A stretch of 64,000 nt of DNA from the NCBI RefSeq assembly GCF_013122565.1, contig NZ_CP053258.1. One strand, 5' to 3'. Within the stretch, counting starts at the first letter, position 1; each line of letters begins with the position of its first letter. The notes below the pieces were generated by a model that was not told the DNA's origin, did no database searches, and saw only the letters and a program-made list of their open reading frames with translations. Of this stretch, positions 1-20,954 are shown one piece after another. The stretch is from Escherichia coli (GTDB lineage Bacteria; Pseudomonadota; Gammaproteobacteria; Enterobacterales; Enterobacteriaceae). The position numbers and the translations under genes were made by a program.

Positions 1-965
<965 letters not shown>

Positions 966-1239
966 TTATAATTGAATTAATCCACGGATGCGATAGTTGA
1001 GATCTTACATATTGTTGGTTAAAGAGATGTAGATCAAATTGATCGTAATTAAGCTTTTTTGATTATGTCCGAATTCGGACAAATGCTTTATAAAAAAGGG
1101 TTTTAGCTTCATATCCTTCAAGTAATGAGGGAGAAAACAAGGCTGACAACCTTATTTTCCCGCCCTCATTTCGAGGCAGCATTTTGTGCTCTGTTTAAAA
1201 TTTGTGATCACTGTGTGATTTTCACAAAAGCCACACTAT

Positions 1240-2133
<894 letters not shown>

Positions 2134-2171
2134 TTACCTCATCAATCGCTTGTTGTTATATGTTGTGTTGT

Positions 2172-2211
2172 GCACATCTATCCATTTAGACGTCCAGATG
2201 TAAAGATGAAG
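2172..2211 (-). promoter_or_regulatory. tandem met boxes (MetJ operator) upstream of metF
   Basis: Consecutive 8-mers AGACGTCC-AGATGTAA-AGATGAAG resembling met-box consensus AGACGTCT, 40-80 nt upstream of metF start. Confidence 0.6.
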
Positions 2212-2540
2212 GAAAAGCCGAAGGGCGTCAACCGAAAAATGACCACTGATGGTGAGGAAATATCAGGGAAGTTGAAATTTTTTCATCTGAAGAAAAAAAC
2301 AGGGATACCAATGTTCAGTATGAGGTGAATATTGGGAAAATGCTGACGTTATTAATTTTATATTTATTTAAATGATGATTCATTCTGATTTATTTACTTA
2401 AAAAATGAATTATATTTTCAAATAAAACAAAAAGATACTTTAAGCCTCTCCGGCCTCCTCGCTTTTAATTTTGAACCACTTCAAACAAATAATAAATTCC
2501 TAAGAATTAAGTTGCAGACAAATTATACATCCCTCACGAT

Positions 2541-2571
2541 AAGTAGAACGTTCTAGTAGAACGTTCTACTT
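2541..2571 (+). promoter_or_regulatory. tandem LacI-family-type palindromic operator upstream of PTS gene
   Basis: AAGTAGAACGTTCTAGTAGAACGTTCTACTT: two copies of palindrome TAGAACGTTCTA with central CG, ~50 nt upstream of the PTS EIICB start. Confidence 0.5.
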
Positions 2572-2623
2572 ATATAAATAATCGTTCTTGCGCAGTCATC
2601 TGCGCTATTCGGGGGAAATCAGC

Positions 2624-4123
2624 ATGGGTCTGATATCGAGTGTCGTAAAATCACTTTCTAAACTGTCGATGATTGGTCGCGCGCTGATGCTGCCAATTTC
2701 GCTTCTGCCTGCCGCCGGGTTGTTGCTGGCGTTCGGCGATAAATTCCACATGCCGTTGATGATGAATGCCGGCGGTATCATTTTTGATAACTTGCCGATG
2801 CTTTTTGCTATCGGTTCTGCCGTGGGACTGGCTTCAGAATCGGGTATTGCGGCGCTATCCGCAGCTGTATCCGTCTTTGTCACTAATATCACCATCGGTA
2901 CTGTCCTTGGCATCACACCAGAGATGGCCGGGCAAGGCGGTAAATATGCGATGGTGGTGGGGATCCCAACGCTGCAAATGGGCGTCTTCGGCGGCCTGAT
3001 ATGCGGGGTTCTGGCGGCGTGGTGTTACAACCGTTTTCATACCATGCAATTACCAGAATTCCTTGGCTTTTTCTCCGGCAAACGCTTCGTGGCTATCGCG
3101 ACGGCTTTTCTTTCCTTCATCCTTGGCTTGTTACTGCCCTATGTCTGGCAACATATTCAGTCGGGAATCGATGCCCTATCAGTTATCGTCAATGGTGATA
3201 ACCAGGCGGCATCGACCTTTATTTTTGGTGTGACAGAACGTGCGCTCATTCCGCTTGGCCTGCACCACATCTGGTATCCATCGTTCTGGTACTCTTTTGG
3301 TGATTACACCACCCAGGCAGGCCAAATGATCCACGGTGACCAAACAATTTGGTTCAAAATGCTGGAAGAAGGTGTGAAATCGTTCAGTAGCGACAGCTAC
3401 CATAACGCGGGTAAGTTTTTACAGGGCGAGTTCCCGCTCATGCTGTTCGCGCTGCCTGCGGCGTGTCTGGCGATGTACCATGAAGCACACACCAAAAATA
3501 AGAAAATTGCCGCCGGTATTCTGTTCTCTGCCGCATTAACCTGTTTCCTGACAGGTATTACAGAACCCGTTGAATTTACCTTTATTTTCGTGGCACCGGT
3601 ACTGTACGTATTCAACGCGATAATGGCTGGCCTCTCCTATATGGCGATGTATCTGCTCCATGCCCATATTGCAAAATCCTTCTCGGCAGGGCTTATCGAT
3701 TATATTTCGTTTGGCATCCTGCCATCATTTAACGGCTACGAAACCAACTTCCTGAGTGCCATTATTGTTGGCGTACCGATGGCGATTATCTATTACTTCA
3801 CTTTCCGCTTTGTTATTCGCCGTTTTGATGTGAAAACACCGGGTCGAGCCGAAAGCACCGTATCCGCTAACGATAAAACCGATGATGAACTGGCTACGGA
3901 AATTATCAGTCTGCTGGGCGGCCAACAAAATATCTCTTCCGTCGCATCCTGCATAACACGCCTGCGTCTGGAAGTGGCAGATAAGGATGTAGTTGATAAA
4001 GATGGACTGAACAATGTCGGTGCTCGTGGTGTGGTTTTTGTCGGCGATAACGGCATTCAGGTGATTTTTGGCGCACGTGCACAATTTATCGCGCAAACCA
4101 TGTCGACGATGATTGGCAAATAG
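2624..4123 (+). CDS. PTS glucose/maltose-family EIICB component
   Basis: Polytopic membrane N-terminal domain plus C-terminal EIIB with CITRLR phospho-cysteine motif; start placed at ATG 2624 after GGGGGA RBS (track ORF begins at TTG 2588). Confidence 0.8.
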   Translation: MGLISSVVKSLSKLSMIGRALMLPISLLPAAGLLLAFGDKFHMPLMMNAGGIIFDNLPMLFAIGSAVGLASESGIAALSAAVSVFVTNITIGTVLGITPEMAGQGGKYAMVVGIPTLQMGVFGGLICGVLAAWCYNRFHTMQLPEFLGFFSGKRFVAIATAFLSFILGLLLPYVWQHIQSGIDALSVIVNGDNQAASTFIFGVTERALIPLGLHHIWYPSFWYSFGDYTTQAGQMIHGDQTIWFKMLEEGVKSFSSDSYHNAGKFLQGEFPLMLFALPAACLAMYHEAHTKNKKIAAGILFSAALTCFLTGITEPVEFTFIFVAPVLYVFNAIMAGLSYMAMYLLHAHIAKSFSAGLIDYISFGILPSFNGYETNFLSAIIVGVPMAIIYYFTFRFVIRRFDVKTPGRAESTVSANDKTDDELATEIISLLGGQQNISSVASCITRLRLEVADKDVVDKDGLNNVGARGVVFVGDNGIQVIFGARAQFIAQTMSTMIGK

Positions 4124-4190
4124 TCATAAGATTACGCTTTGTTGGAGGTTCTGGTCCCTGACTGGAACCTTCGTACTTATTGTTCAGGGA

Positions 4191-5213
4191 GTGAAGTTGA
4201 AGAAAGTCAGCATAATTGATGTTGCCAAAAGCGCAGGAGTCTCGGTCTCTACTGTGTCGCTGGTCCTGCGCCAGAAAGGCAAAATTTCCGAGGCAACCAT
4301 CGAGAAAGTTCATGCTGCCATTACTGAGCTTGGCTACGTGCATAATGTTGCCGCCGCCAATTTACGCTCCAACACTTCAAATCTTATCGGTCTGATTTTA
4401 CGTGATTTTAGCGATAGCTTTTCCATCAAAGTGATGGCAAGTATTGTTCAGGAACTGGAAGCACAAGGATATATGGTTTTCCTCGGGCAACCACAGAACG
4501 AGCATGAACATCTTGAACGCTGTTTGCTTTCCTTCAAGCAACAAGGTGTTGCCGGAGTGATTTATCTGGCTTCCGATGCGCAGCGTGAAACCTTACCCGC
4601 GCTGATTCGCCAGTGCCCTCTTCCTCTTGTCGTCGCCTCACAATCCCCCATCAAAGATGAATGCAATCTGGTATTGCGCGACAACCAGCAGGCGGCAAGC
4701 CTTGCCACGCGTTATTTAATTGAGCGTGGACATCGTTACATTGCCTACCTCGGCGGCAGAGAAAGCGATCTTATCCGCCAACAGCGACTGGTGGGTTTTC
4801 GCCAGACCCTGGCAAAATTCGGTATTGCCAGTCGTGACGAGTTCACGCCAGCCTGTGACGATGATACATACGCCGCCAGCATGGCCACGCGCCAGTTGCT
4901 GGAGAATAACAATGCCATCACCGCCCTACTCTGCCATTCGCCCGAGGCCATGATTGGCGGTATCAACGGCATACATCAGGTGGGGCGCACCGTCGGGAGA
5001 GACATCTTTCTGACCCAGCAGGTGGCGCTAATTGGTTTTGAAGATATGCTGCACATCAATCTGACCTCGCCCGTTTTCACCTATGTCTCTTCCGCCAGTG
5101 AAGAAACCGGACGCCAGGCTGCTAATCTAATAATCCGCAAGTTAAAAGACCCGGAGCTGCAAATTCAAAGAATTGCGCTTTCCGGGCAACTGGTAGTGCG
5201 GGAATCGGCGTAA
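4191..5213 (+). CDS. LacI-family transcriptional regulator
   Basis: N-terminal HTH KKVSIIDVAKSAGVSVSTVSLVL followed by periplasmic-binding-protein-like sugar-binding fold; start at GTG 4191 or TTG 4197 is uncertain. Confidence 0.8.
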   Translation: MKLKKVSIIDVAKSAGVSVSTVSLVLRQKGKISEATIEKVHAAITELGYVHNVAAANLRSNTSNLIGLILRDFSDSFSIKVMASIVQELEAQGYMVFLGQPQNEHEHLERCLLSFKQQGVAGVIYLASDAQRETLPALIRQCPLPLVVASQSPIKDECNLVLRDNQQAASLATRYLIERGHRYIAYLGGRESDLIRQQRLVGFRQTLAKFGIASRDEFTPACDDDTYAASMATRQLLENNNAITALLCHSPEAMIGGINGIHQVGRTVGRDIFLTQQVALIGFEDMLHINLTSPVFTYVSSASEETGRQAANLIIRKLKDPELQIQRIALSGQLVVRESA

Positions 5214-5336
5214 TTATTTCTGCCAGTCTCCGTCTTTAGCCGGCGGTCATCGCCACAACTGCACTGATGGATATGGTATTCTTTCGAGTATCTTTGCGGG
5301 CACTAACGCCAGGAGTATCGCCATGAGAATGGCGCG

Positions 5337-6818
5337 ATGAACACAGGGAATTTCGAGTCGATACAAATCATACTCGACGCGCAAGAGTGGCGTAGCCTGC
5401 CGCTGCATCTGCGTCTGTATCACGCTTTTCGCCAATTGGTGATTTCCGGCGCGTTGTCTGATGGCGCAAAGCTGCCGTCCGCTCGCGCACTGGCCCAGCA
5501 ACTTGGTCTTTCCAGAGATACCGTCGAAAATGCCTATTCCCAGCTTCAGCGCGACGGTTTTATGACCCGCAGGCAGGGAGCCGGGAGTTTCGCCAGCCGC
5601 CAGGGGATCCCGCAAATTCAGGGGCAGCACGCTCAGCCCCCCTCGCCCGGACAAGCACCGGCATTAACCGCCCGCTGGCAGCCGATTGCCGATCGCGCCG
5701 TCTCTTTCGATGCCCGCCAGATGCAGACCTTTACGCTTGGCCTGCCGGAAACGCGAAACTTCCCGCTAAACATTTGGCAGAACTTTTCCCGCCAGATCCA
5801 ACGTGAGCAGGCGCATACGCTGATGTTAAATAGCGATCCGCAGGGCGAGCCGGAGCTGCGCCAGCAAATTGCGCATTACCTTAATTTTGAACGCGGCGCG
5901 AAGGTAGATGCAGAGCAGATTGTGATTGTCAGCGGCGCACGGCAGGCGTTCTGGCTGTGCGGGCAACTGCTGGCAGAGGCCGGGCAATCAGTGGCGATGG
6001 AAAATCCAGGCTATCCCGGCGCGCGTCAGGCGTTTTCTGCCGCACAGCTTAATCTTCTTCCCGTTGAAGTGGATGACGCCGGGATCCGGGTGGATAAACT
6101 GCCGCCCGCACCGCTGGTTTACGTCACGCCGTCGCACCAGTTTCCTTCTGGTCATTTGCTCACGCTGGCGCGCCGTCACGCCCTGATTGCCTGGGCACAG
6201 GCGCACAATGCGTGGATTATTGAAGACGACTACGACAGCGAATTTCACTACACCAGCGCGCCCGTCGCCTGTCTGCAAGGGTTAGACTGCGAGCAACGCA
6301 CCCTGTATGTCGGCACTTTCAGCAAAACGCTCTATCCTGGTTTGCGCATTGGTTATCTGGTGGTGCCTGCCTCGCTGGCTGCGCACTTTGCCGCCGCACG
6401 TAATTTGCTTGATGGCGCAACGCCTGCGTTATCCCAACTGACGCTGGCGCGATTTATCGAGTCCGGTCATTTTGCCGCCCATATTCGCACCATGCGCAAT
6501 ATGTACGCGGTGCGACAGGCGAGCCTTGCAGAGGCTATTCATCAGCACTTAAGTGAATGGGTCACGCCAGTGGTGACATCCGGTGGATTACAAATGCCCT
6601 GCTGGCTGCATGAAGATGTTGATGAGCAACAGACGCTGAACGCGGCGCGCCGCGCCGGGTTAAATATCGCCGGGATGCGCCAGTTCTGGCTGACGCACCC
6701 CGCGCCCGCGGGCTGGCTGCTGGGATTCGCCGCCTTTACCCCCTACGAAATTGAGCAGGGAGTCAAGCGTCTGCGGGCTGCATTATGCGCTGAAAACGTG
6801 CGCCCAGCCGGGTCATAA
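5337..6818 (+). CDS. MocR/GntR-family regulator with PLP-dependent aminotransferase-like domain
   Basis: 493 aa; N-terminal GntR-type HTH (LPSARALAQQLGLSRDTVENAYSQL) plus large C-terminal aminotransferase-fold domain. Confidence 0.75.
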   Translation: MNTGNFESIQIILDAQEWRSLPLHLRLYHAFRQLVISGALSDGAKLPSARALAQQLGLSRDTVENAYSQLQRDGFMTRRQGAGSFASRQGIPQIQGQHAQPPSPGQAPALTARWQPIADRAVSFDARQMQTFTLGLPETRNFPLNIWQNFSRQIQREQAHTLMLNSDPQGEPELRQQIAHYLNFERGAKVDAEQIVIVSGARQAFWLCGQLLAEAGQSVAMENPGYPGARQAFSAAQLNLLPVEVDDAGIRVDKLPPAPLVYVTPSHQFPSGHLLTLARRHALIAWAQAHNAWIIEDDYDSEFHYTSAPVACLQGLDCEQRTLYVGTFSKTLYPGLRIGYLVVPASLAAHFAAARNLLDGATPALSQLTLARFIESGHFAAHIRTMRNMYAVRQASLAEAIHQHLSEWVTPVVTSGGLQMPCWLHEDVDEQQTLNAARRAGLNIAGMRQFWLTHPAPAGWLLGFAAFTPYEIEQGVKRLRAALCAENVRPAGS

Positions 6819-7869
6819 TCTCATACGGGATGGTGTCGCAGGCAGCCGCAACCTCTTCCAGCGTCTGGCCTGTGCCAATAAACTCCACCTTATCGCCCGC
6901 CGTCGGCGTGACGGCGCTGGCATCGACCATAAAGCTGTCCATACACACCCGCCCCAACACCGGTAACCGCACCCCGCGCCAGCATACGCCCGCCGGAGGA
7001 CGCATATTTCGCGGAACGCCATCCGCGTAACCCGCGGATATCGTGGCGATACGCAGCGGACGCGTGGCGGTAACCGTGCTGCCGTAGCCAACTGGCGTTC
7101 CGGCCGGAACATCCTGCACGCGCAGTATGGTCAGCGTCAGCGTAAAGACCGGTTTTAACGGCCTGGAAAACCACGGCTGGGTGACGCCAAACAGCGCAAT
7201 CCCCGGACGGCAGAGATCTTCCCGCCAGCCCGAGTGCAAAAACATCCCGCAGGAGTTCGCCAGCGAAAATCGGCTGCTGGGGAAAACCGTTTTTGCCTGC
7301 TGAAGTCGCGCGTGTTGCGCCATATTTAACGCATGATCCGGCCTGTCGGCGTTCGCCAGATGGCTGATGATATAATCCGGCGCAGGCCAGTTACGCTCAC
7401 GAAAAATCGCCGCCAGACGCATCAGTTGTTGCGACATCACGCCCAGCCGCGACATCCCGGAATCGAGCTGAATCATCACCGCACGCCGCTGCTGGCGCGT
7501 TTCCAGTAACGTAAGCCACGCCATCACCTGGTCTACGGAATTGAGCAATGGCGTGATCTGCTGCGCGTAACAAAATGCCATCGCCTCCGGCATAACCCCA
7601 TTAAGCACCACCACCCGCGCATCAGCGGGCAAGCATTTACGCAGCGCCACACCTTCAGAAAGCTGCGCGACAAAAAAGATCCGGCAGTTCGCCGCATACA
7701 GGGCGGGAGCAATCGCCTCCGCCCCCAGACCATAGGCATTCGCCTTCAACACCGCGCCACATTGCGCACGGGCAGCATGGCGGGCCAGGGTGCGATAATT
7801 TTCGACAATGGCGGCGAGATTGACGCACATAACGCCGCACGCCGCCTGAATTTCAGCAAGAGTTATCAT
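6763..7869 (-). CDS. alanine racemase-family (fold-type III PLP) enzyme
   Basis: 368 aa; [11 protein letters not shown]-lysine motif typical of Alr; ATG overlaps stop of upstream GlyA-like ORF (ATGA). Confidence 0.75.
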
Positions 7870-8981
7870 TGATAAGGCAACGGATAGCGGTTGGTTAGTT
7901 GTATTACTTTTTGCTCAATATCGGCGCAAATGTCTGCAATATCTGACGCGTTAATGGCCAGAATGATTTCACTTATCCAGTCAGCAATAAGCGCAAAGTC
8001 ATCCGCCTGCATCCCACGCGTGGTGCAGGCCGCGCTGCCAATACGAACGCCGGAGGTAATCGACGGCGGCTGCGGATCGCCCGGCAGGGTGTTTTTATTA
8101 ACCGTGATCCCCGCCAGTTCGAGAAAATACTCTACCTGTGCGCCGGTTAACCCCTGCGGGCGCAGGTCGATAATCCCCAGATGGCAATCGGTGCCGCCCG
8201 TTAACAGCGTCAGACCGCGCTGCGCCAGTTGCTGGCACATCGCCTGCGCATTGTCGATGACCTGCCCGGCATAACGTTTAAATTCCGGTTGTAATGCCTC
8301 GCCAAGCGCCACCGCTTTCGCCGCGATAACGTGCATCAACGGCCCGCCCTGCAAACCGGGAAAGATGGCGCTGTCGATTTTTTTCGCAAGCCGGGCGTCG
8401 TTGGTGAGGATCATGCCGCCGCGCGGCCCGCGCAACGTTTTATGCGTGGTGGTGGTGACCACATCAGCATACGCCAGCGGCGAAGGGAAACAGCCGCCCG
8501 CCACCAGCCCGGCAAAGTGCGCCATATCCACCAGCAAAATGGCGCCCACGGCATCGGCAATGCGGCGAAAACGGGCAAAATCATAGCGGCGTGGATAAGC
8601 CGATCCTCCGGCAATAATCAACCGTGGGCGCTCACGCAGCGCGATCATCTCGACTTCATCCATATCAATCAGGCCACTATGGGCATCGACGCCATAGTGA
8701 AAAGCGTTAAACCATTTGCCAGATTGATTGACCGGCGAACCGTGCGTGAGATGCCCGCCGCATTGCAGGCTCATGCCAAGAATTTTGTCGCCGGGTTTCA
8801 GCAACGCCAGATAGACCGCCTGATTCGCCTGGCTGCCGGAGTGAGGCTGCACATTGACGTAACGTGCGCCAAAGAGTTGCTGGGCGCGGGTTATCGCCAG
8901 CATCTCAACCTCATCAATAAACTTACAGCCGCCGTAGTAGCGATGCTGGTAATAACCTTCGGCGTATTTATTGGTTAACAC
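7866..8981 (-). CDS. serine hydroxymethyltransferase (GlyA) paralog; N-terminus interrupted by in-frame TAG (possible pseudogene, intact frame would start at ATG 9104)
   Basis: ORF aligns to SHMT from LTNKYAEGY onward ([21 protein letters not shown] motifs). Upstream in-frame codons read [43 protein letters not shown], still SHMT-like. Confidence 0.65.
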
Positions 8982-9337
8982 CGACCCCTGCGCCGCGAGA
9001 ACAGCGGGGCTTACGAAATTCTCCGAGGCAATCAGTTCCAGCGACTACTGCTGGCGCTGTTGCTCCTGGTTAATCAATGCAAAAAGTGGATCGTTATTTA
9101 TCATGCGCTTCCCCCGAAAATTCATCATGCGATGATTTTCGCAGGGAAAACGTCGCCCGCACCCTGCCACTTTTTAGAATGAGCGCAGACCACCTATGTC
9201 GTTTTACTTAAAAGAAGAGGGAAGAAGGCTCCAGGCATCTCCATATGCGATTCTGGTTGGTAATACATCATATTCCAGCTGCTCTTATCTGCCTACGTTA
9301 TTGCATAGGCAGAATAAGGCAGCCTCAATACGTACTT

Positions 9338-10891
9338 TTACTTGATATATTTCACGCGCATACCGTTGATCTGTTCATCCGTGATGGTGTTACCCGCTTT
9401 GAAGTAATCAACCACGGCGTGATAAACGTAATAACCGCCCGTTGTGTTACGCGCTTTCCCTTCGGTAAAGGCGGTAAAACCATCTCCACCATCAGCAAGG
9501 AAACTCTGGGTGGCAATAGAATAAACTGTCGCATCTTCAATGGGTTTGCCATTCAGAGTCAGTGTGATTACCCGCTGACCAACCGGCTTGCTGCTGTCGT
9601 ACTTCATTTCCAGGCCTTTCGATACCTGTAAAACGCCATTACTTAAACTTGCGCCGTGTTCCATCAAACTGCGTAATTGTTTCCCTGTGAGATCCATCGT
9701 CACCAGTTCGTTGGGGAACGGGAAGGTACTGATGACGCCGCCCATCGTAATCGCCCCTGCGGGGATCTCATTGCGAATACCGCCAGAGTTGGTTAAGGCT
9801 ATTTGGGTGTTTTTACCCGCCGCTACCAGTAAAGCGTCAGCCGCCAGGTTCCCGAGGGAAGCCGATTCACCATAGGCACGTTTTAATTCAACCGGCGATT
9901 GCGCCACCGTTTGTTGCACCACTTCATCAAGCTTTTTATTCCAGCCGTCGATCACCTGTTTTGTTTGCGGATCGGGCTTCCACTCGTCGGCGTAAATGGT
10001 TTTCAGCTCGAAGTTTTTCACCGTAAAATCATGCGGCTTCTCTTTGTAGTCGAGGACCAGTTTGCCCACATCAATCCCGCCGCTGTCAGTGGAGAGGATG
10101 AGCGTATTGCCGACTTTAATCGGTTCCGGCGTACCCACATGTGCATGTCCGGTGATCAAAATATCCAGCCCTTTCACCTGACTTGCCGTCTGAATATCTT
10201 TATCCAGTGCGCGACGCACATCGGTCCCTCCCATACTGGACTGGCGGGCCGGAACACCTTCATGGATCAGGGCGACGGTCAAATCAACCTTGCCTTTAAG
10301 TTCATCGATATAACGTTGTAGCCATTTAATTTCATCGCGCGCTTCAATACCCACGCGCGTGGCAGCAGATACCGTATCGTTGAAAGCAAATACTCCGTGC
10401 AAACCTATAACGCCTATTTTCACGCCGTCTTTTTCGATGATGGTATATGGCTTATCCCAGAATGATTTACTGCTGTTCTGATAAAAAACATTGCCCTGCA
10501 CAATAGGGAATTTTGCCTGACTCAACTGTAATAATGTGTTGTCCCAGCCGTGGTCAAATTCATGGTTGCCTATCGTGACGGCATCAAACGGCATAGTATT
10601 CATAATATCGATAATAGCCTTACCTTTGGTCAGGCTGCTGATATATGGCCCGGTAAAATAATCACCCGCATCAAAAAACCATGTCGCTTTATTTTTTGCT
10701 TTTTCTTGCTTAACCAGCGTAGTGATATTTGCCCAGCCGCCAATATCCCGTTTACCGTCAGCGATCCACGGCACTTTATAAGGCTCGACATGCGCATGGA
10801 GGTCGTTGGTATAAATGATGGTGACATCTTTGGCGCAAGCCCAGAACGGCAATGTTAATGCGATACCCGCAGCAAGTATTTTAATTTTCAT
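9338..10891 (-). CDS. secreted bifunctional metallophosphatase/5'-nucleotidase (UshA-like)
   Basis: 517 aa; signal peptide [20 protein letters not shown]; calcineurin-like metallophosphatase motifs (GNHEFD, GHAH) and C-terminal 5'-nucleotidase domain. Confidence 0.8.
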
Positions 10892-11023
10892 AAATAGTCC
10901 CTTTCAGTGATTTAAAGGATTGCTACATTACGTTCTGAAAGAGTTATTTATGTGAGAGTAATCACATCCGCAGGGGATAGTTGCCGGACAAAATCAACGA
11001 CCTTGTGAAATCGTTGGTGATAT

Positions 11024-12154
11024 ATGTCAACTCTGTTTACGATTAATGCCTGCAAGTCGTTTGGTTGCCGTAATTTAGGGCAACCAACATCGACAGATTA
11101 CAGCTGGCCAGACTATCGACTGGGTTATCCGGCACTGCACTGTCGGGCATGTGGAAGTTACCCGCCGTTGTTTGACGAACAGCAATTTCGTGACTGGTTG
11201 TCAGTTCACTTATCTACTTTTGCAACTGAGAAAGGTCATTTCTGCCCGGTATGTTATGGCACAAAGACGATTTGTTATGGCCACAATCCACAGGGGTCGC
11301 AACGCATTCAATGTCGTAACTGCAAAAAAGTCTGGACACCTAAACAATATCAGAAAGAAATAACGCCTCCTGAAATAATCGAAACGGTTGCTCTTCTGGT
11401 GCCATTTCAGGGAGCCAGCAATGGGCAGAAACTGTATGTTTTAATCAGTTTTGATGCTCTTCGCGGTAATATTCTTCATCTTTCTACTAATTACACGCAG
11501 CATCAGGCTGGAGAAAGTCTGCATTATCGATACAGAGGAAATGCAGAACCAGAGTTACACGAGAGTAATATTGTACAACGCGTTGATATGCGCGAAGCAC
11601 AATTTCTACGCCGCAGTCAGTTTGATGAAATTCAGTATGGCAGCGCAGCGCTCAAACGCAATGCTAAAGGTATTATTCTGCGTCCGGTTATCACTGCACA
11701 CGGGCATTTCAGAGTACTGAATATTTTATTCCCTACAGTAAAAACACATGTAATTTCACACGAGTGTTTTTTAAGAGGTGCCATTATTACGGCATGGGCT
11801 GATCTGTTTCGCCAACAGCAAGGTGAAATTTGGTTTATTGAAGAGGAAATAGCTGACTATACCGATAATATGCCCTGGAGTTTTCAGGGAACAACATATC
11901 ACGGCTGGTGGAAAAATCAGTGGCAACTTTGGGGTCAGGGCAAAAATCGTAAAATGGTATGTGCATTAACAGGCGGAAATAACAGCAAAGCTGAAATGCT
12001 CTCTTTCGCAACCAGCAGACATTTTATCGACTGGCTACATAAACAAGCAGTATTTACTCACAGCACCCCGCTTTCCGCAGGGCGCGTTACGCAAATACTG
12101 CTTTCTCTGGCTCAGGATTACAACAACTGCGCCAGCCGGTTGATATCCGACTGA
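11024..12154 (+). CDS. hypothetical protein with InsA/IS1595-type zinc-ribbon motifs (transposase-like, likely domesticated or relic)
   Basis: 376 aa; paired CxxC motifs (HCRACG, CPVCYG...QCRNCKKVW) resembling transposase zinc ribbons; 3' end overlaps metL 3' end by 37 nt, so no room for a terminal inverted repeat. Confidence 0.5.
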   Translation: MSTLFTINACKSFGCRNLGQPTSTDYSWPDYRLGYPALHCRACGSYPPLFDEQQFRDWLSVHLSTFATEKGHFCPVCYGTKTICYGHNPQGSQRIQCRNCKKVWTPKQYQKEITPPEIIETVALLVPFQGASNGQKLYVLISFDALRGNILHLSTNYTQHQAGESLHYRYRGNAEPELHESNIVQRVDMREAQFLRRSQFDEIQYGSAALKRNAKGIILRPVITAHGHFRVLNILFPTVKTHVISHECFLRGAIITAWADLFRQQQGEIWFIEEEIADYTDNMPWSFQGTTYHGWWKNQWQLWGQGKNRKMVCALTGGNNSKAEMLSFATSRHFIDWLHKQAVFTHSTPLSAGRVTQILLSLAQDYNNCASRLISD

Positions 12155-14550
12155 ATCGCCCCGGCGGTGACATCGCGCCCTGCGCCTGGTCCGCGGATCA
12201 CCAGAGGGTTATCGCGATACCAGCGGCTTTCGATGGCAAAGACGTTATCGCACGGCAGCAGTGATGCCAGCGGATGATCTTCACGCACCGCTTCCACGCC
12301 CACACGCGCTTTGCCGTTGGCATCGAAACGCGCCACGTAGCGCAGCACCAGCCCCATTTCGCGGGCCGCTTCCAGCCGTTGCAACATCTGCTCGTTGAGT
12401 TCATCGCCGTTTTCAAAGAAATGGTCGATGCTACCGCCTTCGCAATGGGCAGGCACCAGCGATTCCACGCGCACCTGATCCGGTTCGATGTCGTAACCCG
12501 CTTCACGCGCCAGAATCACCAGCTTGCGCATTACGTCTTTGCCGGAGAGGTCGTCACGCGGATCAGGCTCGGTTAAGCCCTGCTGCCACGCCTGATCCAC
12601 CAGCTCGGTAAACGGCACGCTACCGTCGAATTGCAGGAACAGCCAGGAGAGCGTGCCGGAGAAGATCCCACTGATCGACAAAATAGTATCGCCGCTGTCG
12701 ATCAGATCGCGCACGGTGTGGTTGATCGGCAAGCCCGCGCCGACGGTAGCGTTGTACAGCCAGTGACGCCCGGTTTTTTCGAAGGCGTCGTGGATCTGGC
12801 GATATTTATTGCTGTCGCTGGCTCCTGCCAGTTTGTTGGCGCTAATGACGTGGAAACCGTGGCTGGCGAAATCGAGATACTGGTCAGCAAGCTGCTGGCT
12901 GGCGGTAACGTCCAGCACCACTAAATCATCATACGGATGGGCGCGCATCCACAGGAACAGCGACTCTTCATCCTGCTCAACCGCTTCATCGTTGAAGAAG
13001 GCTAACGCGCGGCTGGCGTCCAGCCCGTCATAACTCAACAGGCTGCGGCGGCTGTCCACCACGCCTGCCAGCACAAATTCAAAGCCGGTACGTGCCGAAA
13101 GCGTGCTCTGCTCACGGGCGAACAGTTCCAGCCAGCGGGAACCGATATTGCCCTTGCCGAACAATACCAGGCCGATGCGTTTTTCCGCGCGGAAGACGGA
13201 CTGATGCAGCCCCTGAATCAGGCTTTCGGTCGGGCCGGTGCGCAGAACTGCCACCAGGCTGATGCCGTCATCGGACTGCCAGGTAAACTCGACCGGCTGG
13301 CCTTTCAGTTGCTGCCAGAAGCGGTGGCAATGCAGCGGGTTACGGGTGACACCCGCCCCGACCATCGCCACCAGCGCCAACCCCTGACGCAGGCGCAGCT
13401 CGCCAGGTAATCCCGCTTCGTCTAGGATTTTCAGCGCACTGTCGGCCACTTCTGAGGTGTAGCAAAATTGCAGCAACTGGCGATCGTTATGCACGCCAAC
13501 CGCCAGTGGGCGCACCTGCGCGCGTTTCAGGATCTGGTCGATCTCTTTATGCGCCAGTTTGAAATCCTGGCTGGCGGGCACCTGAAACTCAATCAAGCAG
13601 ACATCGTCGTGGCTGGTGACAATACGCGCACCAGTACCGGAGGCCAGCACGCGTTCAATGCGCGTGGAACCTTGATCCGGCGTGTAGCTACAGCGCAGTT
13701 GCAGGTCAATTTCGCTGCCTGATACCGGCTGTAAAGTACGGGCGTGGAGAACCGGAGCCGCCAGACGCGCCAGTTCGCTGGCTTCATCCAGACGCAGCAA
13801 CGGCAACAGGCAGGCATCTTTCACTTTACGCGGGTCGGCACTGTATACCCCGGCGACGTCGCTCCAGATGGTTACACGAGAAACACCCGCCAGCGCACCG
13901 ATTTGTGTCGCGGAGTAGTCGGAACCGTTACGCCCCAGCAGCACCGTTTCACCGGCGTTGTTACGGCTGATAAACCCGGTCACCACCAGACGTTTACCCG
14001 GATGTTGTACCAGTAGCTGTTGCAGCAACGGGTAAGAAAGCCCTTCATCAACCTGCGGCTGCGCAGCGCGTTCAGCGCGTAAAAACTCGCGGGCATCAAG
14101 CCAGGCCGCTGGCAGCCCTTGTTGATTAAGTACCGCAGACATCAGGCGCGCCGACCACACTTCACCATGGCCCACCACTTCCGCATACACCGCATCGTTA
14201 ATACCGCTGTCGAGCAGCGCCGCCAGGCGCTCAAGATCGCTGACAAAAGCGCTAATGAGGCTATCGGCTTCTTCAGCGGGTAGCAGACCGCTAATCAGAT
14301 CGCACTGATAGCGACGCAGCGTTTGTTGAACCTGATGCGCAGAGAGACGATCGGTCTGGCTTAGTTTCAACCAGTTAATCAACTGGTTAGTGGTGCTACC
14401 AGCGGCGGAAACCACCATCATATCGTCAGGCTGAGAGTACTCCGCCATAATGCCCGCGACACGCAAATAACACTTCACATCAGCCAGACTACTGCCACCA
14501 AATTTATGCAGTTGACGACCTTTCGCCCCTGCCTGCGCAATCACACTCAT
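12118..14550 (-). CDS. metL: bifunctional aspartokinase II / homoserine dehydrogenase II
   Basis: 810-aa ORF MSVIAQAGAKGRQLHKFGGSSLADVKCYLRVAG... matches MetL full length. Confidence 0.95.
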   Translation of the reverse strand: MSVIAQAGAKGRQLHKFGGSSLADVKCYLRVAGIMAEYSQPDDMMVVSAAGSTTNQLINWLKLSQTDRLSAHQVQQTLRRYQCDLISGLLPAEEADSLISAFVSDLERLAALLDSGINDAVYAEVVGHGEVWSARLMSAVLNQQGLPAAWLDAREFLRAERAAQPQVDEGLSYPLLQQLLVQHPGKRLVVTGFISRNNAGETVLLGRNGSDYSATQIGALAGVSRVTIWSDVAGVYSADPRKVKDACLLPLLRLDEASELARLAAPVLHARTLQPVSGSEIDLQLRCSYTPDQGSTRIERVLASGTGARIVTSHDDVCLIEFQVPASQDFKLAHKEIDQILKRAQVRPLAVGVHNDRQLLQFCYTSEVADSALKILDEAGLPGELRLRQGLALVAMVGAGVTRNPLHCHRFWQQLKGQPVEFTWQSDDGISLVAVLRTGPTESLIQGLHQSVFRAEKRIGLVLFGKGNIGSRWLELFAREQSTLSARTGFEFVLAGVVDSRRSLLSYDGLDASRALAFFNDEAVEQDEESLFLWMRAHPYDDLVVLDVTASQQLADQYLDFASHGFHVISANKLAGASDSNKYRQIHDAFEKTGRHWLYNATVGAGLPINHTVRDLIDSGDTILSISGIFSGTLSWLFLQFDGSVPFTELVDQAWQQGLTEPDPRDDLSGKDVMRKLVILAREAGYDIEPDQVRVESLVPAHCEGGSIDHFFENGDELNEQMLQRLEAAREMGLVLRYVARFDANGKARVGVEAVREDHPLASLLPCDNVFAIESRWYRDNPLVIRGPGAGRDVTAGAIQSDINRLAQLL

Positions 14551-14552
14551 TT

Positions 14553-15713
14553 TTACCCCTTGTTTGCAGCCCGGAAGCCATTTTCCAGGTCGGCAATTAA
14601 ATCTTCGCCATCTTCAATACCGGTGGAGATACGCAGCAGCGTCTCGGAGATCCCGGCGGCAGCACGCGCTTCTGGTGCCATGCCTGCATGTGTCATGGTT
14701 GCGGCGTGAGAGATTAAACTTTCCACTCCCCCTAATGATTCCGCCAGCGTAAACAACGACAGCCCGCCCAGGAAACGACGCAGCGTCTGCTCATCGCCAT
14801 CCAGTTCAAAACTCAACATTGCGCCAAAGCCTTTTTGCTGACGCGCGGCAATTTCATGCCCCTGATTTTCCGGCAGCGACGGGTGATACAGTTTTTTCAC
14901 CAACGGCTGGGTTTGCAGATATTTCACAATCGCCTGCGCGTTACGCTGGGCCAGCTCCATACGCGGCACCAGCGTTCGCAACCCGCGTAGCAGCAGATAG
15001 CTGTCAAACGCGCCACCCGTCACGCCAATATTGTTTGCCCACCAGGCAAGTTCAGTGACAACGTCCGGGTCTTTAGCAATCACCACGCCGGCCACCACGT
15101 CTGAGTGACCGTTCAGATATTTCGTGCATGAATGCAACACCAGATCGGCACCTAATGCCAGCGGATTTTGTAATGCCGGGCTTAAGAAGGTGTTATCCAC
15201 CACGCTCACCGCCCCGACTTCCCTTGCCAGATGGCAGATTTTCGCAATATCCACGACGCGTAACAATGGATTACTTGGGCTTTCTACCAGTACCAGTTTG
15301 GGTTTTTCTGCCAGCGCTGCCCGTAATGCCTGTTCATCGCCTTGATCAACAAACAACACGCGATAGCAACCACGTTTCGCCAGGCTGTCGAACAGGCGAT
15401 AGCTACCGCCGTAGCAGTCGTGTGGCGCAACCAGCAGATCGCCAGGTTTCAAAAAGACGGTCGTTACCAGGTGAATCGCGGACATGCCGGTATTAGTAAG
15501 TACGGCACCAGCACCGCCTTCCAGTTCTGCCAGCGCACGCTGAACCACATCGCGCGTTGGGTTGCCGCGACGCGAGTAATCATGCACGCGCGGTTCATTA
15601 AATCCGGTAAAGTTATAGGTACTGGAAAGATGGATGGGTGGGACAACGCAACCATACTGTTCGTCGTCATTTAACCCGCTACGCACTGCGATGGTGGCCT
15701 GTTTACGCGTCAT
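14553..15713 (-). CDS. metB: cystathionine gamma-synthase
   Basis: Track ORF contains MTRKQATIAVRSGLNDDEQYGCV...; start refined to that Met (386 aa). Confidence 0.93.
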   Translation of the reverse strand: MTRKQATIAVRSGLNDDEQYGCVVPPIHLSSTYNFTGFNEPRVHDYSRRGNPTRDVVQRALAELEGGAGAVLTNTGMSAIHLVTTVFLKPGDLLVAPHDCYGGSYRLFDSLAKRGCYRVLFVDQGDEQALRAALAEKPKLVLVESPSNPLLRVVDIAKICHLAREVGAVSVVDNTFLSPALQNPLALGADLVLHSCTKYLNGHSDVVAGVVIAKDPDVVTELAWWANNIGVTGGAFDSYLLLRGLRTLVPRMELAQRNAQAIVKYLQTQPLVKKLYHPSLPENQGHEIAARQQKGFGAMLSFELDGDEQTLRRFLGGLSLFTLAESLGGVESLISHAATMTHAGMAPEARAAAGISETLLRISTGIEDGEDLIADLENGFRAANKG

Positions 15714-15785
15714 GTGATGAAGTTCCCTGGGCTTGGTCGGTGAAATGTCAGGCACCAGAGTAAACATTGTGTTAATGGACGTCAA

Positions 15786-15809
15786 TACATCTGGACATCT
15801 AAACTTCTT
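15786..15809. promoter_or_regulatory. met boxes in metB/metJ divergent control region
   Basis: ACATCTGG-ACATCTAA-ACTTCTTT (complement AGATGT-type met boxes) between metB and metJ starts. Confidence 0.55.
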
Positions 15810-15989
15810 TGCGTATAGATTGAGCAAATCCCAAATAGCCGTTAAAATTATATGCATTATCACGCCGACAGGTGCATTACACGATGTCACGGTAGCGCCT
15901 GTACGGTAAACTATGCGGGTTTACAGCCAGTGCCCACATTTACTGTGTGGTCTGGTCTCAATTTATTGACGAAGAGGATTAAGTATCTC

Positions 15990-16307
15990 ATGGCTGAATG
16001 GAGCGGCGAATATATCAGCCCATACGCTGAGCACGGCAAGAAGAGTGAACAAGTCAAAAAGATTACGGTTTCCATTCCTCTTAAGGTGTTAAAAATCCTC
16101 ACCGATGAACGCACGCGTCGTCAGGTGAACAACCTGCGTCACGCGACCAACAGCGAGCTGCTGTGCGAAGCGTTTCTGCATGCCTTTACCGGGCAACCTT
16201 TGCCGGATGATGCCGATCTGCGTAAAGAGCGCAGCGACGAAATCCCGGAAGCGGCAAAAGAGATCATGCGTGAGATGGGGATTAACCCGGAGACGTGGGA
16301 ATACTAA
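15990..16307 (+). CDS. metJ: methionine repressor MetJ
   Basis: [66 protein letters not shown]...; 105 aa. Confidence 0.95.
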
Positions 16308-16335
16308 AGCGGAAAAGAGCGGCGCGGAGTGGAAT

Positions 16336-16434
16336 CGCCTGATGCGCTACGCTTATCAGGCCTACGTCATATTGCAATTTATTGAATTTGCACGAACTTG
16401 TAGGCCGGATAAGGCGTTCACGCCGCATCCGGCA
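16336..16434. repeat. BIME/REP palindromic units downstream of metJ
   Basis: Two inverted REP units (CGCCTGATGCGCTACGCTTATCAGGCCTAC ... GTAGGCCGGATAAGGCGTTCACGCCGCATCCGGCA). Confidence 0.85.
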
Positions 16435-16490
16435 TAAACAACGAGCACGTTGTCTGCGACCCACCGCTTTTTATACATGGACGTTTAACG

Positions 16491-17099
16491 ATGAAATACA
16501 GGCTACTGATCCTCAGTCTGCTGGTTTCTGTGCCTGCATTTGCCTGGCAACCACAAACCGGCGACATCATCTTTCAGATCTCTCGCTCATCGCAAAGTAA
16601 AGCGATCCAACTGGCGACCCATTCCGATTACAGCCACACCGGTATGCTGGTGATACGCAACAAAAAGCCCTACGTTTTTGAAGCGGTCGGCCCGGTGAAA
16701 TACACCCCGCTCAAGCAGTGGATCGCCCATGGTGAAAAGGGCAAATACGTTGTTCGCCGCGTTGAAGGCGGACTGAGTGTTGAACAACAGCAAAAACTGG
16801 CGCAAACGGCAAAACGTTATCTCGGCAAACCGTACGATTTCAGCTTCTCATGGAGCGACGATCGCCAGTACTGTTCGGAAGTGGTGTGGAAGGTTTACCA
16901 GAATGCGCTGGGAATGCGCGTGGGCGAACAGCAAAAGTTGAAAGAGTTCGACCTTAGTAACCCGCTGGTTCAGGCAAAGCTCAAAGAACGCTACGGCAAA
17001 AATATTCCGCTTGAGGAAACGGTGGTCTCACCACAAGCCGTTTTCGATGCGCCACAACTCACCACGGTTGCCAAAGAGTGGCCGCTGTTTTCCTGGTGA
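16491..17099 (+). CDS. yiiX: YiiX-family permuted papain-fold peptidase
   Basis: 202 aa with signal peptide MKYRLLILSLLVSVPAFA; synteny metJ-yiiX-rpmE. Confidence 0.9.
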   Translation: MKYRLLILSLLVSVPAFAWQPQTGDIIFQISRSSQSKAIQLATHSDYSHTGMLVIRNKKPYVFEAVGPVKYTPLKQWIAHGEKGKYVVRRVEGGLSVEQQQKLAQTAKRYLGKPYDFSFSWSDDRQYCSEVVWKVYQNALGMRVGEQQKLKEFDLSNPLVQAKLKERYGKNIPLEETVVSPQAVFDAPQLTTVAKEWPLFSW

Positions 17100-17119
17100 T
17101 ACGACCAAAATTCAGGCAC

Positions 17120-17146
17120 AAAAAAAGCGCCGTGCGGCGCTTTTTT
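17120..17146. terminator. bidirectional rho-independent terminator between yiiX and rpmE
   Basis: AAAAAAAGCGCCGTGCGGCGCTTTTTT: GC hairpin flanked by A-run and T-run. Confidence 0.75.
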
Positions 17147-17159
17147 CGGAAATCCGGTC

Positions 17160-17411
<252 letters not shown>

Positions 17412-17415
17412 CTAA

Positions 17416-19773
<2,358 letters not shown>

Positions 19774-19928
19774 ACCGCTCACGATGCGAGGCGGATCGAA
19801 AAATTCAATATTCATCACACTTTTCATGAAAATTCTGTAACCGTTTTCACGCGCTATCTGCTAAAAATGTTGCCGATGTGAAGTAAACATGGATGTAGTA
19901 CGCCTGACGTGCCAGGCGAGGAGTGAGT

Positions 19929-20954
19929 GTGAAAGCGAAGAAGCAGGAAACTGCCGCGACCATGAAAGACGTTGCCCTCAAGGCAAAAGTCTCTACAGCG
20001 ACTGTCTCCCGAGCATTAATGAATCCCGATAAAGTCTCCCAGGCCACCCGTAATCGGGTTGAAAAAGCGGCCCGGGAAGTGGGTTATTTACCGCAGCCTA
20101 TGGGGCGCAACGTCAAGCGTAATGAATCCCGCACCATTCTGGTGATTGTCCCGGATATCTGCGATCCCTTCTTTAGCGAAATTATTCGCGGTATCGAAGT
20201 TACGGCGGCAAATCACGGATATCTGGTGCTGATTGGCGACTGTGCGCATCAAAATCAGCAAGAAAAAACCTTTATCGATTTGATCATCACCAAGCAAATT
20301 GATGGCATGTTGCTGCTGGGTTCAAGGCTGCCGTTTGATGCCAGCATTGAGGAACAGCGTAATCTGCCGCCGATGGTGATGGCGAACGAATTTGCACCGG
20401 AACTGGAGCTGCCTACCGTTCATATCGACAATCTGACCGCCGCATTTGATGCAGTAAATTATTTATATGAGCAAGGGCATAAACGGATTGGCTGTATAGC
20501 CGGTCCCGAAGAGATGCCGCTTTGTCACTACCGCCTGCAAGGCTACGTTCAGGCGCTGCGTCGCTGCGGCATTATGGTTGATCCGCAATACATCGCCCGT
20601 GGCGACTTCACCTTCGAAGCCGGAAGCAGAGCAATGCAGCAGCTACTTGATCTTCCACAACCGCCTACTGCTGTCTTCTGCCATAGCGATGTGATGGCGC
20701 TCGGCGCACTTTCTCAGGCAAAACGTCAGGGGCTGAAAGTCCCGGAAGACCTTTCCATAATCGGTTTTGATAACATTGACCTGACGCAATTTTGTGATCC
20801 GCCGCTGACAACCATCGCGCAGCCACGTTACGAAATCGGTCGGGAAGCTATGCTGTTATTGCTTGATCAAATGCAGGGGCAACACGTTGGCAGTGGCTCT
20901 CGTTTAATGGACTGCGAACTTATCATCCGGGGATCAACACGCGCGTTACCTTAA
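19929..20954 (+). CDS. cytR: LacI-family repressor CytR
   Basis: (V)KAKKQETAATMKDVALKAKVSTATVSRAL...; GTG start, 341 aa. Confidence 0.93.
   Translation: MKAKKQETAATMKDVALKAKVSTATVSRALMNPDKVSQATRNRVEKAAREVGYLPQPMGRNVKRNESRTILVIVPDICDPFFSEIIRGIEVTAANHGYLVLIGDCAHQNQQEKTFIDLIITKQIDGMLLLGSRLPFDASIEEQRNLPPMVMANEFAPELELPTVHIDNLTAAFDAVNYLYEQGHKRIGCIAGPEEMPLCHYRLQGYVQALRRCGIMVDPQYIARGDFTFEAGSRAMQQLLDLPQPPTAVFCHSDVMALGALSQAKRQGLKVPEDLSIIGFDNIDLTQFCDPPLTTIAQPRYEIGREAMLLLLDQMQGQHVGSGSRLMDCELIIRGSTRALP

Follow-up and report, generated by a model that had tools for sequence, protein, structure and literature searches.

In Escherichia coli K-12, a phosphotransferase system (PTS) transporter of the EIICB type is paired with a pyridoxal 5'-phosphate (PLP)-dependent enzyme, as malX-malY, under the control of MalI. 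Here, we describe a 64,000-nucleotide stretch of E. coli DNA (contig NZ_CP053258.1 of assembly GCF_013122565.1; the whole stretch is termed the window herein), in which genes for a sugar PTS and for PLP-dependent enzymes also stand close together, in a segment of extra DNA between metF and metL. The PLP-dependent enzymes are a serine hydroxymethyltransferase (SHMT) paralogue and an alanine racemase paralogue (termed SHMT2 and Alr3 herein), and a regulator of the MocR family is encoded beside them.

Part of this gene set has a characterized counterpart in Salmonella. SEN3897 ("Alr3") of Salmonella enterica serovar Enteritidis is encoded in island ROD34 and is absent from S. Typhimurium (PMC6040060). 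The purified protein racemizes alanine, with Km values of 89 mM for L-alanine and 35 mM for D-alanine, and its best structural match is 3KW3; it is poorly expressed in lysogeny broth (LB), and alone it does not rescue an alr dadX double mutant to D-alanine prototrophy (PMC6040060). Deletion of SEN3897 was reported to attenuate invasion and virulence (PMC6040060). The racemase is the only part of the ROD34 region that was studied, and the SHMT and MocR genes are unmentioned (PMC6040060); in our search of the literature on the metL-metF locus, no other paper on it was found. For MocR-family regulators in general, operators are typically direct repeats, and predicted regulons often include GlyA-family SHMTs (PMC5320631).

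Results

The metF-metL segment consists of three cassettes

An original prediction, made from the letters of the window, placed metF and metL a few hundred base pairs apart in K-12 and described the DNA that separates them here as an accessory island of about 10 kb, with its left edge at position 2330 and with seven open reading frames (ORFs) whose mixture of functions matched no recognized pathway. In K-12 MG1655, the distance is indeed 348 bp, and the segment is absent there; all seven ORFs are present in the window, and their NCBIfam families agree with those that had been named. The proposed genome comparison for locating the edges was done by blastn against K-12 and five related loci and gave 2278-12116. 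Homology to K-12, which includes the metF promoter, stops at window position 2277 and returns precisely with the metL stop codon, at 12117, and the 9,839 bp in between (2278-12116) stand where K-12 has about 200 bp. The left edge is thus moved from 2330 to 2278.

Pairwise blastn of the window against six loci (K-12, E. coli UTME-7, E. coli 2013C-4282, Escherichia fergusonii, Salmonella, and the unplaced metagenomic contig ENA k141_32483, termed L101 herein) divided the segment, at junctions of homology, into three cassettes. Cassette A (2278-5335, plus strand) carries an operator, a PTS EIICB gene, and a gene for a MalI-like repressor; cassette B (5336-9219) carries the MocR gene, the SHMT2-Alr3 operon, and about 90 bp of conserved upstream DNA; and cassette C (approximately 9283-12116) carries a 5'-nucleotidase gene and a gene for a protein of 376 amino acids (aa). 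We consider it very probable (about 0.8) that the metF-metL interval has long been a variable slot in both Escherichia and Salmonella and that, in the window, it holds three functionally unrelated and independently inherited cassettes side by side.

The evidence for this reading comes from the distribution of the cassettes. Among 5,426 complete RefSeq E. coli genomes, which are the sample for all genome counts given here, cassette A was found in 8 genomes, cassette B in 3, and cassette C in 1,844 (34%, CFT073 included; a median of one copy per genome, at one locus). The sets of genomes with cassettes A and B were disjoint, and no genome of the 5,426 matched ≥80% of a 16-kb query in one place; the combination in the window is therefore unique in this collection. 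In UTME-7-type E. coli, cassette A is colinear with the window (positions 1 to 5214), and cassette B is missing, with 58 bp in its place. In E. fergusonii, Salmonella, and E. coli 2013C-4282, it is cassette A that is missing, and homology jumps from 2277 to 5336. The junction between the two cassettes is sharp (5214-5336), and the ends of cassette B are nearly constant among its carriers, lying at 5336-9219 in the comparison with E. fergusonii, 5336-9194 with Salmonella, and 5332-9193 with L101; the cassette was also found in 2013C-4282. Cassette C was present in all compared loci except K-12 and L101. Cassettes A and B are also found apart in other settings: the PTS and LacI-type genes of cassette A lie between folD and cysS in Atlantibacter hermannii, without cassette B, and cassette B occurs without a PTS directly beside metF in Salmonella, among other extra genes in E. 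fergusonii, and on L101.

These differing distributions, together with the separate occurrence of cassettes A and B, indicate that the sugar PTS and the pair of PLP enzymes are juxtaposed and are not pathway partners. Of the island that had been proposed, the extra DNA at metF-metL that K-12 lacks was borne out, whereas its unity was not. The odd mixture of functions is settled in the same way, as three unrelated cassettes side by side rather than a new pathway: the PTS and PLP genes belong to separate cassettes, and the PLP part is the counterpart of the SEN3897/Alr3 region. Profiling of GC content, which had also been suggested, gave 0.38 to 0.50 for the left side and 0.43 for the right, with 0.60 in cassette B. 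At about 0.60, cassette B departs from most of the neighboring DNA (roughly 0.45 to 0.55).

The combination in the window would most likely have arisen by homologous recombination between variants of the locus that had the flanks and cassette C in common, and site-specific integration would be an unlikely route of assembly. There was no tRNA gene in window positions 1 to 20000, no direct or inverted repeat pair at the segment ends (2278 and 12116), and no integrase or recombinase family match (NCBIfam) among the seven segment proteins.

The content of the slot varies further among enterics. E. fergusonii has, in this order, the 376-aa gene, the 5'-nucleotidase gene, a CMD/LysR pair, the SHMT, racemase, and MocR genes, and a 324-aa gene. 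In Salmonella enterica, the order is an MscS-type channel, a 332-aa gene, a 374-aa gene, and the 5'-nucleotidase, SHMT, racemase, and MocR genes, the last of these divergent from metF; named Salmonella carriers of cassette B are serovars Typhi CT18, Dublin, and Enteritidis, among others. In E. coli 2013C-4282, the 376-aa gene and metL are separated by genes for a Tsx nucleoside channel and two more 5'-nucleotidase paralogues (positions 11584-15732 of that locus), which suggests that the metF-metL slot accumulates nucleotide-scavenging genes. On L101 (positions 1 to 16350), which is enterobacterial, cassette B lies outside the slot, by ParA/DnaB/DUF2857 genes of the integrative and conjugative element (ICE) type, AbiEii fragments, and an autotransporter gene.

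Cassette B encodes a racemase, an interrupted SHMT, and a MocR-type regulator

Alr3 is intact (368 aa; 6763-7869, minus strand) and scored 236.6 bits against the alanine racemase model TIGR00492 (cut-off, 168). It keeps K42 (the PLP lysine), Y262 (the catalytic tyrosine), an MDS motif, and Y349, and K42 and Y262 align with solved racemases; its best match in the Protein Data Bank is Bartonella henselae Alr (3kw3). The protein is identical to the GenBank E. coli protein QJU26048.1 and 83% identical to the Salmonella "alanine racemase 3." We equated its Salmonella orthologue with SEN3897 because SEN3897 and the window protein share 3kw3 as best match and because the S. Enteritidis protein is found in exactly this gene order. 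To judge from the activity known for the 83%-identical SEN3897, Alr3 of the window would be a genuine alanine racemase. Its relatives comprise enteric copies with 75 to 95% identity, followed by proteins with ≤49%, mostly alphaproteobacterial among those with a source name. The neighborhoods of relatives at about 46 to 49% identity were those of ordinary racemase genes, with no SHMT or MocR neighbor, indicating that the SHMT-racemase pairing is not widely conserved outside enterics.

The SHMT2 gene (412 codons; 7866-9104, minus strand) lies directly upstream, and its stop codon overlaps the racemase start codon in the tetranucleotide ATGA. The original prediction of a translationally coupled GlyA-like/Alr-like pair was thus right as to both families and the overlap; the SHMT frame, however, is broken at codon 20. 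Alignment with orthologues identified an in-frame TAG at 9045-9047 (minus strand) in place of Gln20, which makes SHMT2 a pseudogene in this strain: codon 20 is CAG in E. coli 2013C-4282 and E. fergusonii and CAC in Salmonella, and the orthologues of E. fergusonii (411 aa) and Salmonella (412 aa) are intact. The longest ORF by which translation could restart has 371 aa, begins with GTG, and lacks the first 41 residues. The nonsense codon would knock out SHMT2 and leave at most the racemase, probably at reduced expression. Apart from this, the encoded protein is a canonical SHMT. It scored 611 bits against NF000586 (cut-off, 335) and has the same residues as GlyA at all 21 catalytic, PLP, and folate positions examined, including K229, H228, Y55, Y65, R363, and N347. 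Its identity is 94% to the Salmonella counterpart, 62 to 64% to alpha- and betaproteobacterial SHMTs, and 55% to K-12 GlyA.

The third gene encodes a MocR/GabR-type regulator with a GntR winged helix-turn-helix and a fold-type I aminotransferase-like domain (5337-6818, plus strand); it is convergent with the racemase gene, which it overlaps by 56 bp. The protein scored 435 bits against the PdxR model NF052282 (cut-off, 320) and 427 bits against the rhizopine MocR model (cut-off, 650). It gave full-length matches to the PdxR, MocR, and GabR models; PF00392 and PF00155 are recorded on its orthologues, and its translation contains an FSK motif with a putative PLP lysine. No pdx gene was present near the MocR gene in five contexts examined.

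Upstream of the SHMT2 start codon, about 90 bp are conserved in every context, and homology begins right at the first of two direct repeats, AGGTGGTCTGC and AAGTGGCAGGG (also written GGTGGTCTGC and AGTGGCAGGG; 9162-9195, minus strand), the GTGG starts of which are 23 bp apart. The repeat blocks are kept in the window, in two other Escherichia loci, in Salmonella, and in the 78%-identical copy on L101, and the DNA further upstream is unrelated. This conservation marks the repeats as a candidate MocR operator and, taken with the habits of the MocR family (PMC5320631), suggests that the regulator probably controls the SHMT2-Alr3 operon through them. Cassette B may represent an auxiliary MocR-controlled amino acid module, in which a canonical SHMT is translationally coupled to Alr3. 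An Rfam scan of window positions 1 to 16000 detected no riboswitch or known RNA, with two chance matches only (E ≥ 0.19).

Cassette B is decaying in E. coli and under selection elsewhere

Between E. fergusonii and Salmonella, the ratios of nonsynonymous to synonymous divergence (dN/dS) are 0.07 for SHMT2, 0.19 for Alr3, and 0.12 to 0.13 for the MocR gene, and the cassette B genes are under purifying selection in this comparison. Within E. coli, further nonsense mutations were found in SHMT2 of 2013C-4282 (Q281*) and in Alr3 of RMDEC465 (Y349*). With Q20* of the window, this makes three independent knock-outs in four E. coli carriers, and since different nonsense mutations have arisen in separate lineages, cassette B is decaying in E. 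coli.

The window and E. fergusonii have about 95% nucleotide identity throughout, in cassettes and flanks alike. In the comparison with Salmonella, cassette B (87% nucleotide identity) is slightly above metF, katG, and metBL (84 to 86%), and cassette C (76%) is below them. Between Escherichia and Salmonella, the synonymous divergence (dS) of the cassette B genes is 0.44 to 0.52, versus 0.89 for metL and 1.3 for metF; between the window and E. fergusonii, it is 0.13 to 0.16, versus 0.23 for metL and 0.30 for metF. The 376-aa gene of cassette C (window positions 11024-12151 compared with positions 4408-5535 of the E. fergusonii locus) has a dS of 0.04, versus 0.23 to 0.33 for neighboring genes, which points to recent recombinational exchange of that gene between E. 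coli and E. fergusonii.

Cassette A resembles a self-contained sugar-uptake unit

Cassette A encodes a PTS EIICB of the glucose/N-acetylglucosamine (GlcNAc) family without an EIIA domain (2624-4123, plus strand), assigned with TIGR02002 and an EIIB model. The match to TIGR02002 (glcB) is full-length (residues 10 to 497) and reaches 563 bits (cut-off, 592); the other substrate models score lower and are also under their cut-offs (nag, 439 versus 553 bits; malX, 320 versus 632 bits). The EIIB domain is above cut-off (TIGR00826, 61.6 versus 45.75 bits), and PF02378 and PF00367 are recorded on orthologues. As the protein is under every curated equivalog cut-off (PtsG, NagE, and MalX), we assigned no substrate, though a glucose- or glucosamine-type sugar would be in keeping with its family. 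Orthologues of 499 aa with 83 to 90% identity occur in Enterobacter, Atlantibacter, Cedecea, Cronobacter, Pantoea, and Serratia; those in Enterobacter, Atlantibacter, and Pantoea are common and at another locus, and some sources label the orthologues glucosamine or GlcNAc specific.

The adjacent gene (4197-5213, plus strand) encodes a LacI-family repressor of the MalI subfamily, which scored 324.2 bits against the MalI model NF007449 (cut-off, 310) and is annotated malI by RefSeq in UTME-7. Some 50 nt ahead of the PTS start codon lies a 35-bp palindromic operator that consists of two tandem TAGAACGTTCTA palindromes (2539-2573), found as an inverted repeat and read directly from the sequence. 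The tandem palindromic operator had been predicted, and its 17-nt arms (2539-2555 and 2557-2573, with 1 nt between them) proved to be 100% complementary. It is presumably bound by the adjacent MalI-like protein, which would repress EIICB via this tandem palindrome over the PTS promoter. The cassette encodes no catabolic enzyme. It might be self-contained for sugar uptake, with EIICB drawing on the general EI, HPr, and EIIA-Glc proteins, and the phosphorylated product would probably enter central or amino-sugar metabolism directly, given that no catabolic enzyme accompanies the transporter.

Cassette C encodes a nucleotidase and a transposase-fold protein

The nucleotidase gene of cassette C (9338-10891, minus strand) encodes a periplasmic metallophosphatase/5'-nucleotidase of the UshA/CpdB superfamily, as assigned with NCBIfam. 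The protein matches nucleotidase and phosphodiesterase families, all below their equivalog cut-offs (UshA NF007109, 152 versus 600 bits), and PF00149 and PF02872, recorded on its orthologues, indicate membership in the wider superfamily only. Its N terminus reads as a putative signal peptide in the translation. A function in nucleotide scavenging would fit.

The second gene (11024-12154, plus strand) extends with its last 37 nt into the 3' end of metL and encodes the 376-aa "cytoplasmic protein." Profiles and a predicted structure assign to this protein a pair of Cys4 zinc ribbons and an RNase H-fold domain of the transposase type. Pfam, NCBIfam, and PHROGs gave only weak zinc-ribbon matches. 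The N-terminal zinc ribbon is of the InsA type (7 of 44 family members at E ≤ 1e-3), and in an AlphaFold model built from 44 relatives (pLDDT, 94.4), the C-terminal domain is confidently predicted to have the RNase H fold of DDE transposases and integrases. In the AlphaFold Database, enteric relatives bear the label "Cytoplasmic protein," and remote relatives in Vibrio are named "IS1 family transposase." Among the 44 relatives, no D-D-E was conserved, E247 being the sole invariably acidic column; the invariant or nearly invariant residues are eight cysteines, N156, Y168, R197, Y205, H228, H246, R251, W296, and W300. The match to the IS1 model NF033558 was 22 bits (cut-off, 100). Without a DDE triad, the protein is probably not an active transposase; its appearance is that of a transposase relative, domesticated or inactive, and not of the agent that brought the segment. 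The original prediction of a Zn-ribbon, transposase-like ORF abutting metL thus agrees with the zinc ribbons and the fold, but the protein has no DDE triad and misses the IS1 cut-off. PADLOC returned no defense-system match for the 376-aa protein, the nucleotidase, or the MocR protein.

Two further observations concern this region. An imperfect 27-nt inverted repeat at 12045-12103, in the 3' end of the 376-aa gene before the metL stop codon, may be a metL terminator shared by both convergent genes. Cassette C also matched a 294-kb record labeled plasmid in one E. coli assembly (NZ_CP170379.1), which could be a misassigned chromosomal fragment.

The flanks of the segment are conserved. On the left lies metF with its promoter region (1240-2277, minus strand; metF itself, an ORF of 296 aa, at 1240-2130), with 98.7% identity to K-12 up to 2277, and on the right lies metL (12118-14550, minus strand; 810 aa), which is colinear with K-12 from window position 12117.

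Discussion

We propose that the segment between metF and metL was put together from three separately inherited cassettes at a variable slot. Several observations weigh against this reading or parts of it. The TAG codon in SHMT2 was seen in one assembly and could be a sequencing error. The gap in K-12 (202 bp) showed no significant similarity to any cassette, its sole match (E = 0.008) lying elsewhere in the UTME-7 locus, and with no cassette remnant in K-12, the change may have been either a loss or a gain. In both comparisons, the genes of cassette B have roughly half the dS of metL and metF, which fits vertical descent, with a slower synonymous rate, as well as later exchange. The homology of cassette B to all other contexts starts only 1 to 5 bp upstream of the MocR start codon (window positions 5332-5337); hence, the region upstream of this gene, presumably its promoter, differs in each genome. 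Finally, when an alignment of Alr3 relatives was used to scan 100,044 species-representative genomes, the only matches had ≤39% identity and came mostly from Firmicutes, and the E. fergusonii carrier was missed; we discarded this negative result as unreliable.

Other readings of cassette B give its enzymes a definite task. One is that it supplies an inducible spare SHMT and racemase, switched on by a PLP-sensing MocR/PdxR-like regulator via the direct repeats when GlyA, Alr, and DadX, PLP enzymes of the two kinds held to be especially prone to mechanism-based inactivation, are poisoned by 2-aminoacrylate, beta-haloalanines, or antimetabolites of the D-cycloserine type. Of the four 2-aminoacrylate targets that have been named in S. 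enterica, GlyA and Alr/DadX account for two (PMC7023182), and the score of the regulator is above the PdxR cut-off, regulons of the PdxR type often holding GlyA-family SHMTs (PMC5320631). Moreover, the active site of SHMT2 is canonical, and for SEN3897, true racemase activity, poor expression in LB, and attenuation of the deletion mutant in published assays have been reported (PMC6040060). The pairing of the two genes could equally be an accident of descent, though, and the module has been lost from most E. coli strains and gathers nonsense mutations; the PdxR score (435 bits) is barely above that for rhizopine MocR (427 bits). We regard such a back-up function as unlikely. If true, it would account for purifying selection in Salmonella Typhi, Enteritidis, and E. 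fergusonii, for the attenuation upon SEN3897 deletion, and for decay in E. coli lineages that have no need of it.

A more specific proposal, which appears quite improbable, is that cassette B degrades alpha-methylserine or 2-hydroxymethylserine, with SHMT2 acting as an alpha-methylserine hydroxymethyltransferase (mSHMT) that yields D-alanine and methylene-tetrahydrofolate (THF) and with Alr3 producing L-alanine. Degraders of tris(hydroxymethyl)aminomethane (TRIS) do cluster an SHMT-like mSHMT with an enzyme that processes D-amino acids, D-serine dehydratase (PMC10848231); SEN3897 has its lower Km with D-alanine (35 mM, versus 89 mM with L-alanine) (PMC6040060); and the adjoining metF consumes methylene-THF. 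SHMT2, however, is 50% identical to the mSHMT of the Shinella TRIS cluster, versus 62 to 64% to ordinary SHMTs, and does not group with it. The mSHMT carries the substitutions Y55T, Y64F, Y65H, S99T, and H228T, whereas SHMT2 agrees with GlyA at all 21 positions; the comparison is with a single homologue, itself a putative mSHMT. The candidate function was rejected as the leading one, as SHMT2 has neither phylogenetic nor active-site affinity to the mSHMT of Shinella plasmid p2_Teo12.

It is very improbable that the PTS and the PLP enzymes form one integrated pathway, in which a sugar/amino-sugar conjugate is imported by the PTS and broken down by the racemase and an aldolase-type SHMT, with LacI and MocR acting jointly as regulators. 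The genes are adjacent, with the LacI-type and MocR genes on the same strand and 123 bp apart, and malX-malY of K-12 sets a precedent for pairing an EIICB with a PLP enzyme under MalI. Against these stand the genome census, in which none of the 5,426 complete E. coli genomes has both cassettes; the carriers with one and not the other, namely, E. fergusonii, Salmonella, and L101 (cassette B without a PTS) and Atlantibacter (PTS and LacI-type gene without cassette B); and the sharp junction at 5214-5336. In the only strain seen with both cassettes, the SHMT is already dead. That the whole segment is a recent mobile island, delivered or mobilized by the transposase-like ORF at metL, is equally hard to credit: for all its InsA-type zinc ribbons and DDE-transposase fold, the GC content that differs from the flanks, and the ICE-type genes beside cassette B on L101, this ORF has no conserved DDE triad and is a single-copy gene whose locus is the same in Salmonella, E. 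fergusonii, and the 34% of E. coli that carry it. Moreover, no terminal inverted repeats, target duplications, tRNA, or integrase were found, and the cassettes differ in distribution and divergence.

On the three-cassette reading, the locus is an ordinary strain-variable one, made of annotated families and in part with a characterized counterpart in Salmonella; each of the three cassettes has been annotated before in other enterics. What is new is this combination of cassettes, the decay of cassette B in E. coli, and the little-explored SHMT-racemase-MocR triad and transposase-fold protein. Across Salmonella Typhi, Salmonella Enteritidis, and E. fergusonii, the triad has been kept at a single chromosomal slot, and of its members, only the racemase has been studied; the transposase-fold protein, without a catalytic triad and at a single copy, is carried by about one third of E. 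coli. The locus is, in addition, an example of how cassettes can be exchanged combinatorially where a hotspot has no mobility genes.

Among the known systems, MalI-malXY of K-12 shares with cassette A a repressor of the MalI subfamily beside a glucose-family EIICB without EIIA, as well as palindromic operators with a central ACGT/CG core. The genes are divergent there and co-directional in the window, however, the EIICB of the window is far closer to PtsG/NagE-type models than to MalX (563 versus 320 bits), and cassette A has no MalY-like gene; the transporter of the window has its true orthologues among the 499-aa EIICBs found in Enterobacter, Atlantibacter, and Pantoea. With IS1-family transposases, the 376-aa protein shares the InsA-type zinc ribbon and, by prediction, the RNase H-type DDE fold of the C-terminal domain; it differs from them in its second zinc ribbon, in having no D-D-E, and in being single copy at a fixed locus without terminal inverted repeats. 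Like regulons of the MocR/PdxR type (PMC5320631), cassette B combines a MocR-type factor with adjacent PLP-dependent enzymes, including an SHMT, and with candidate direct repeats upstream, whereas it has no pdx genes nearby, a convergent regulator, an alanine racemase as partner, and an operator proposed from conservation only.

The closest likenesses are at the slot itself. In the E. fergusonii locus (where the annotation of ATCC 35469 has "Alanine racemase 3"), cassettes B and C run colinear with those of the window and share about 95% of their nucleotides with them; unlike the window, this locus has an intact 411-aa SHMT, the CMD-family/LysR pair between the 5'-nucleotidase and SHMT genes, and a 324-aa hypothetical gene instead of the PTS cassette. 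ROD34 of Salmonella, with SEN3897, differs in its intact SHMT, in the MscS-type channel and 332-aa genes by metL, and in a MocR gene that is divergent from metF, and the PTS/MalI cassette and the SHMT nonsense mutation are found in the window only. The two otherwise occupy the same slot between metL and metF and have the same order of genes, from the 374/376-aa protein through the 5'-nucleotidase, the SHMT paralogue, and the racemase (with coupling of the ATGA type) to the convergent MocR gene, with 87% nucleotide identity across cassette B and amino acid identities of 83% for the racemase and 94% for the SHMT.

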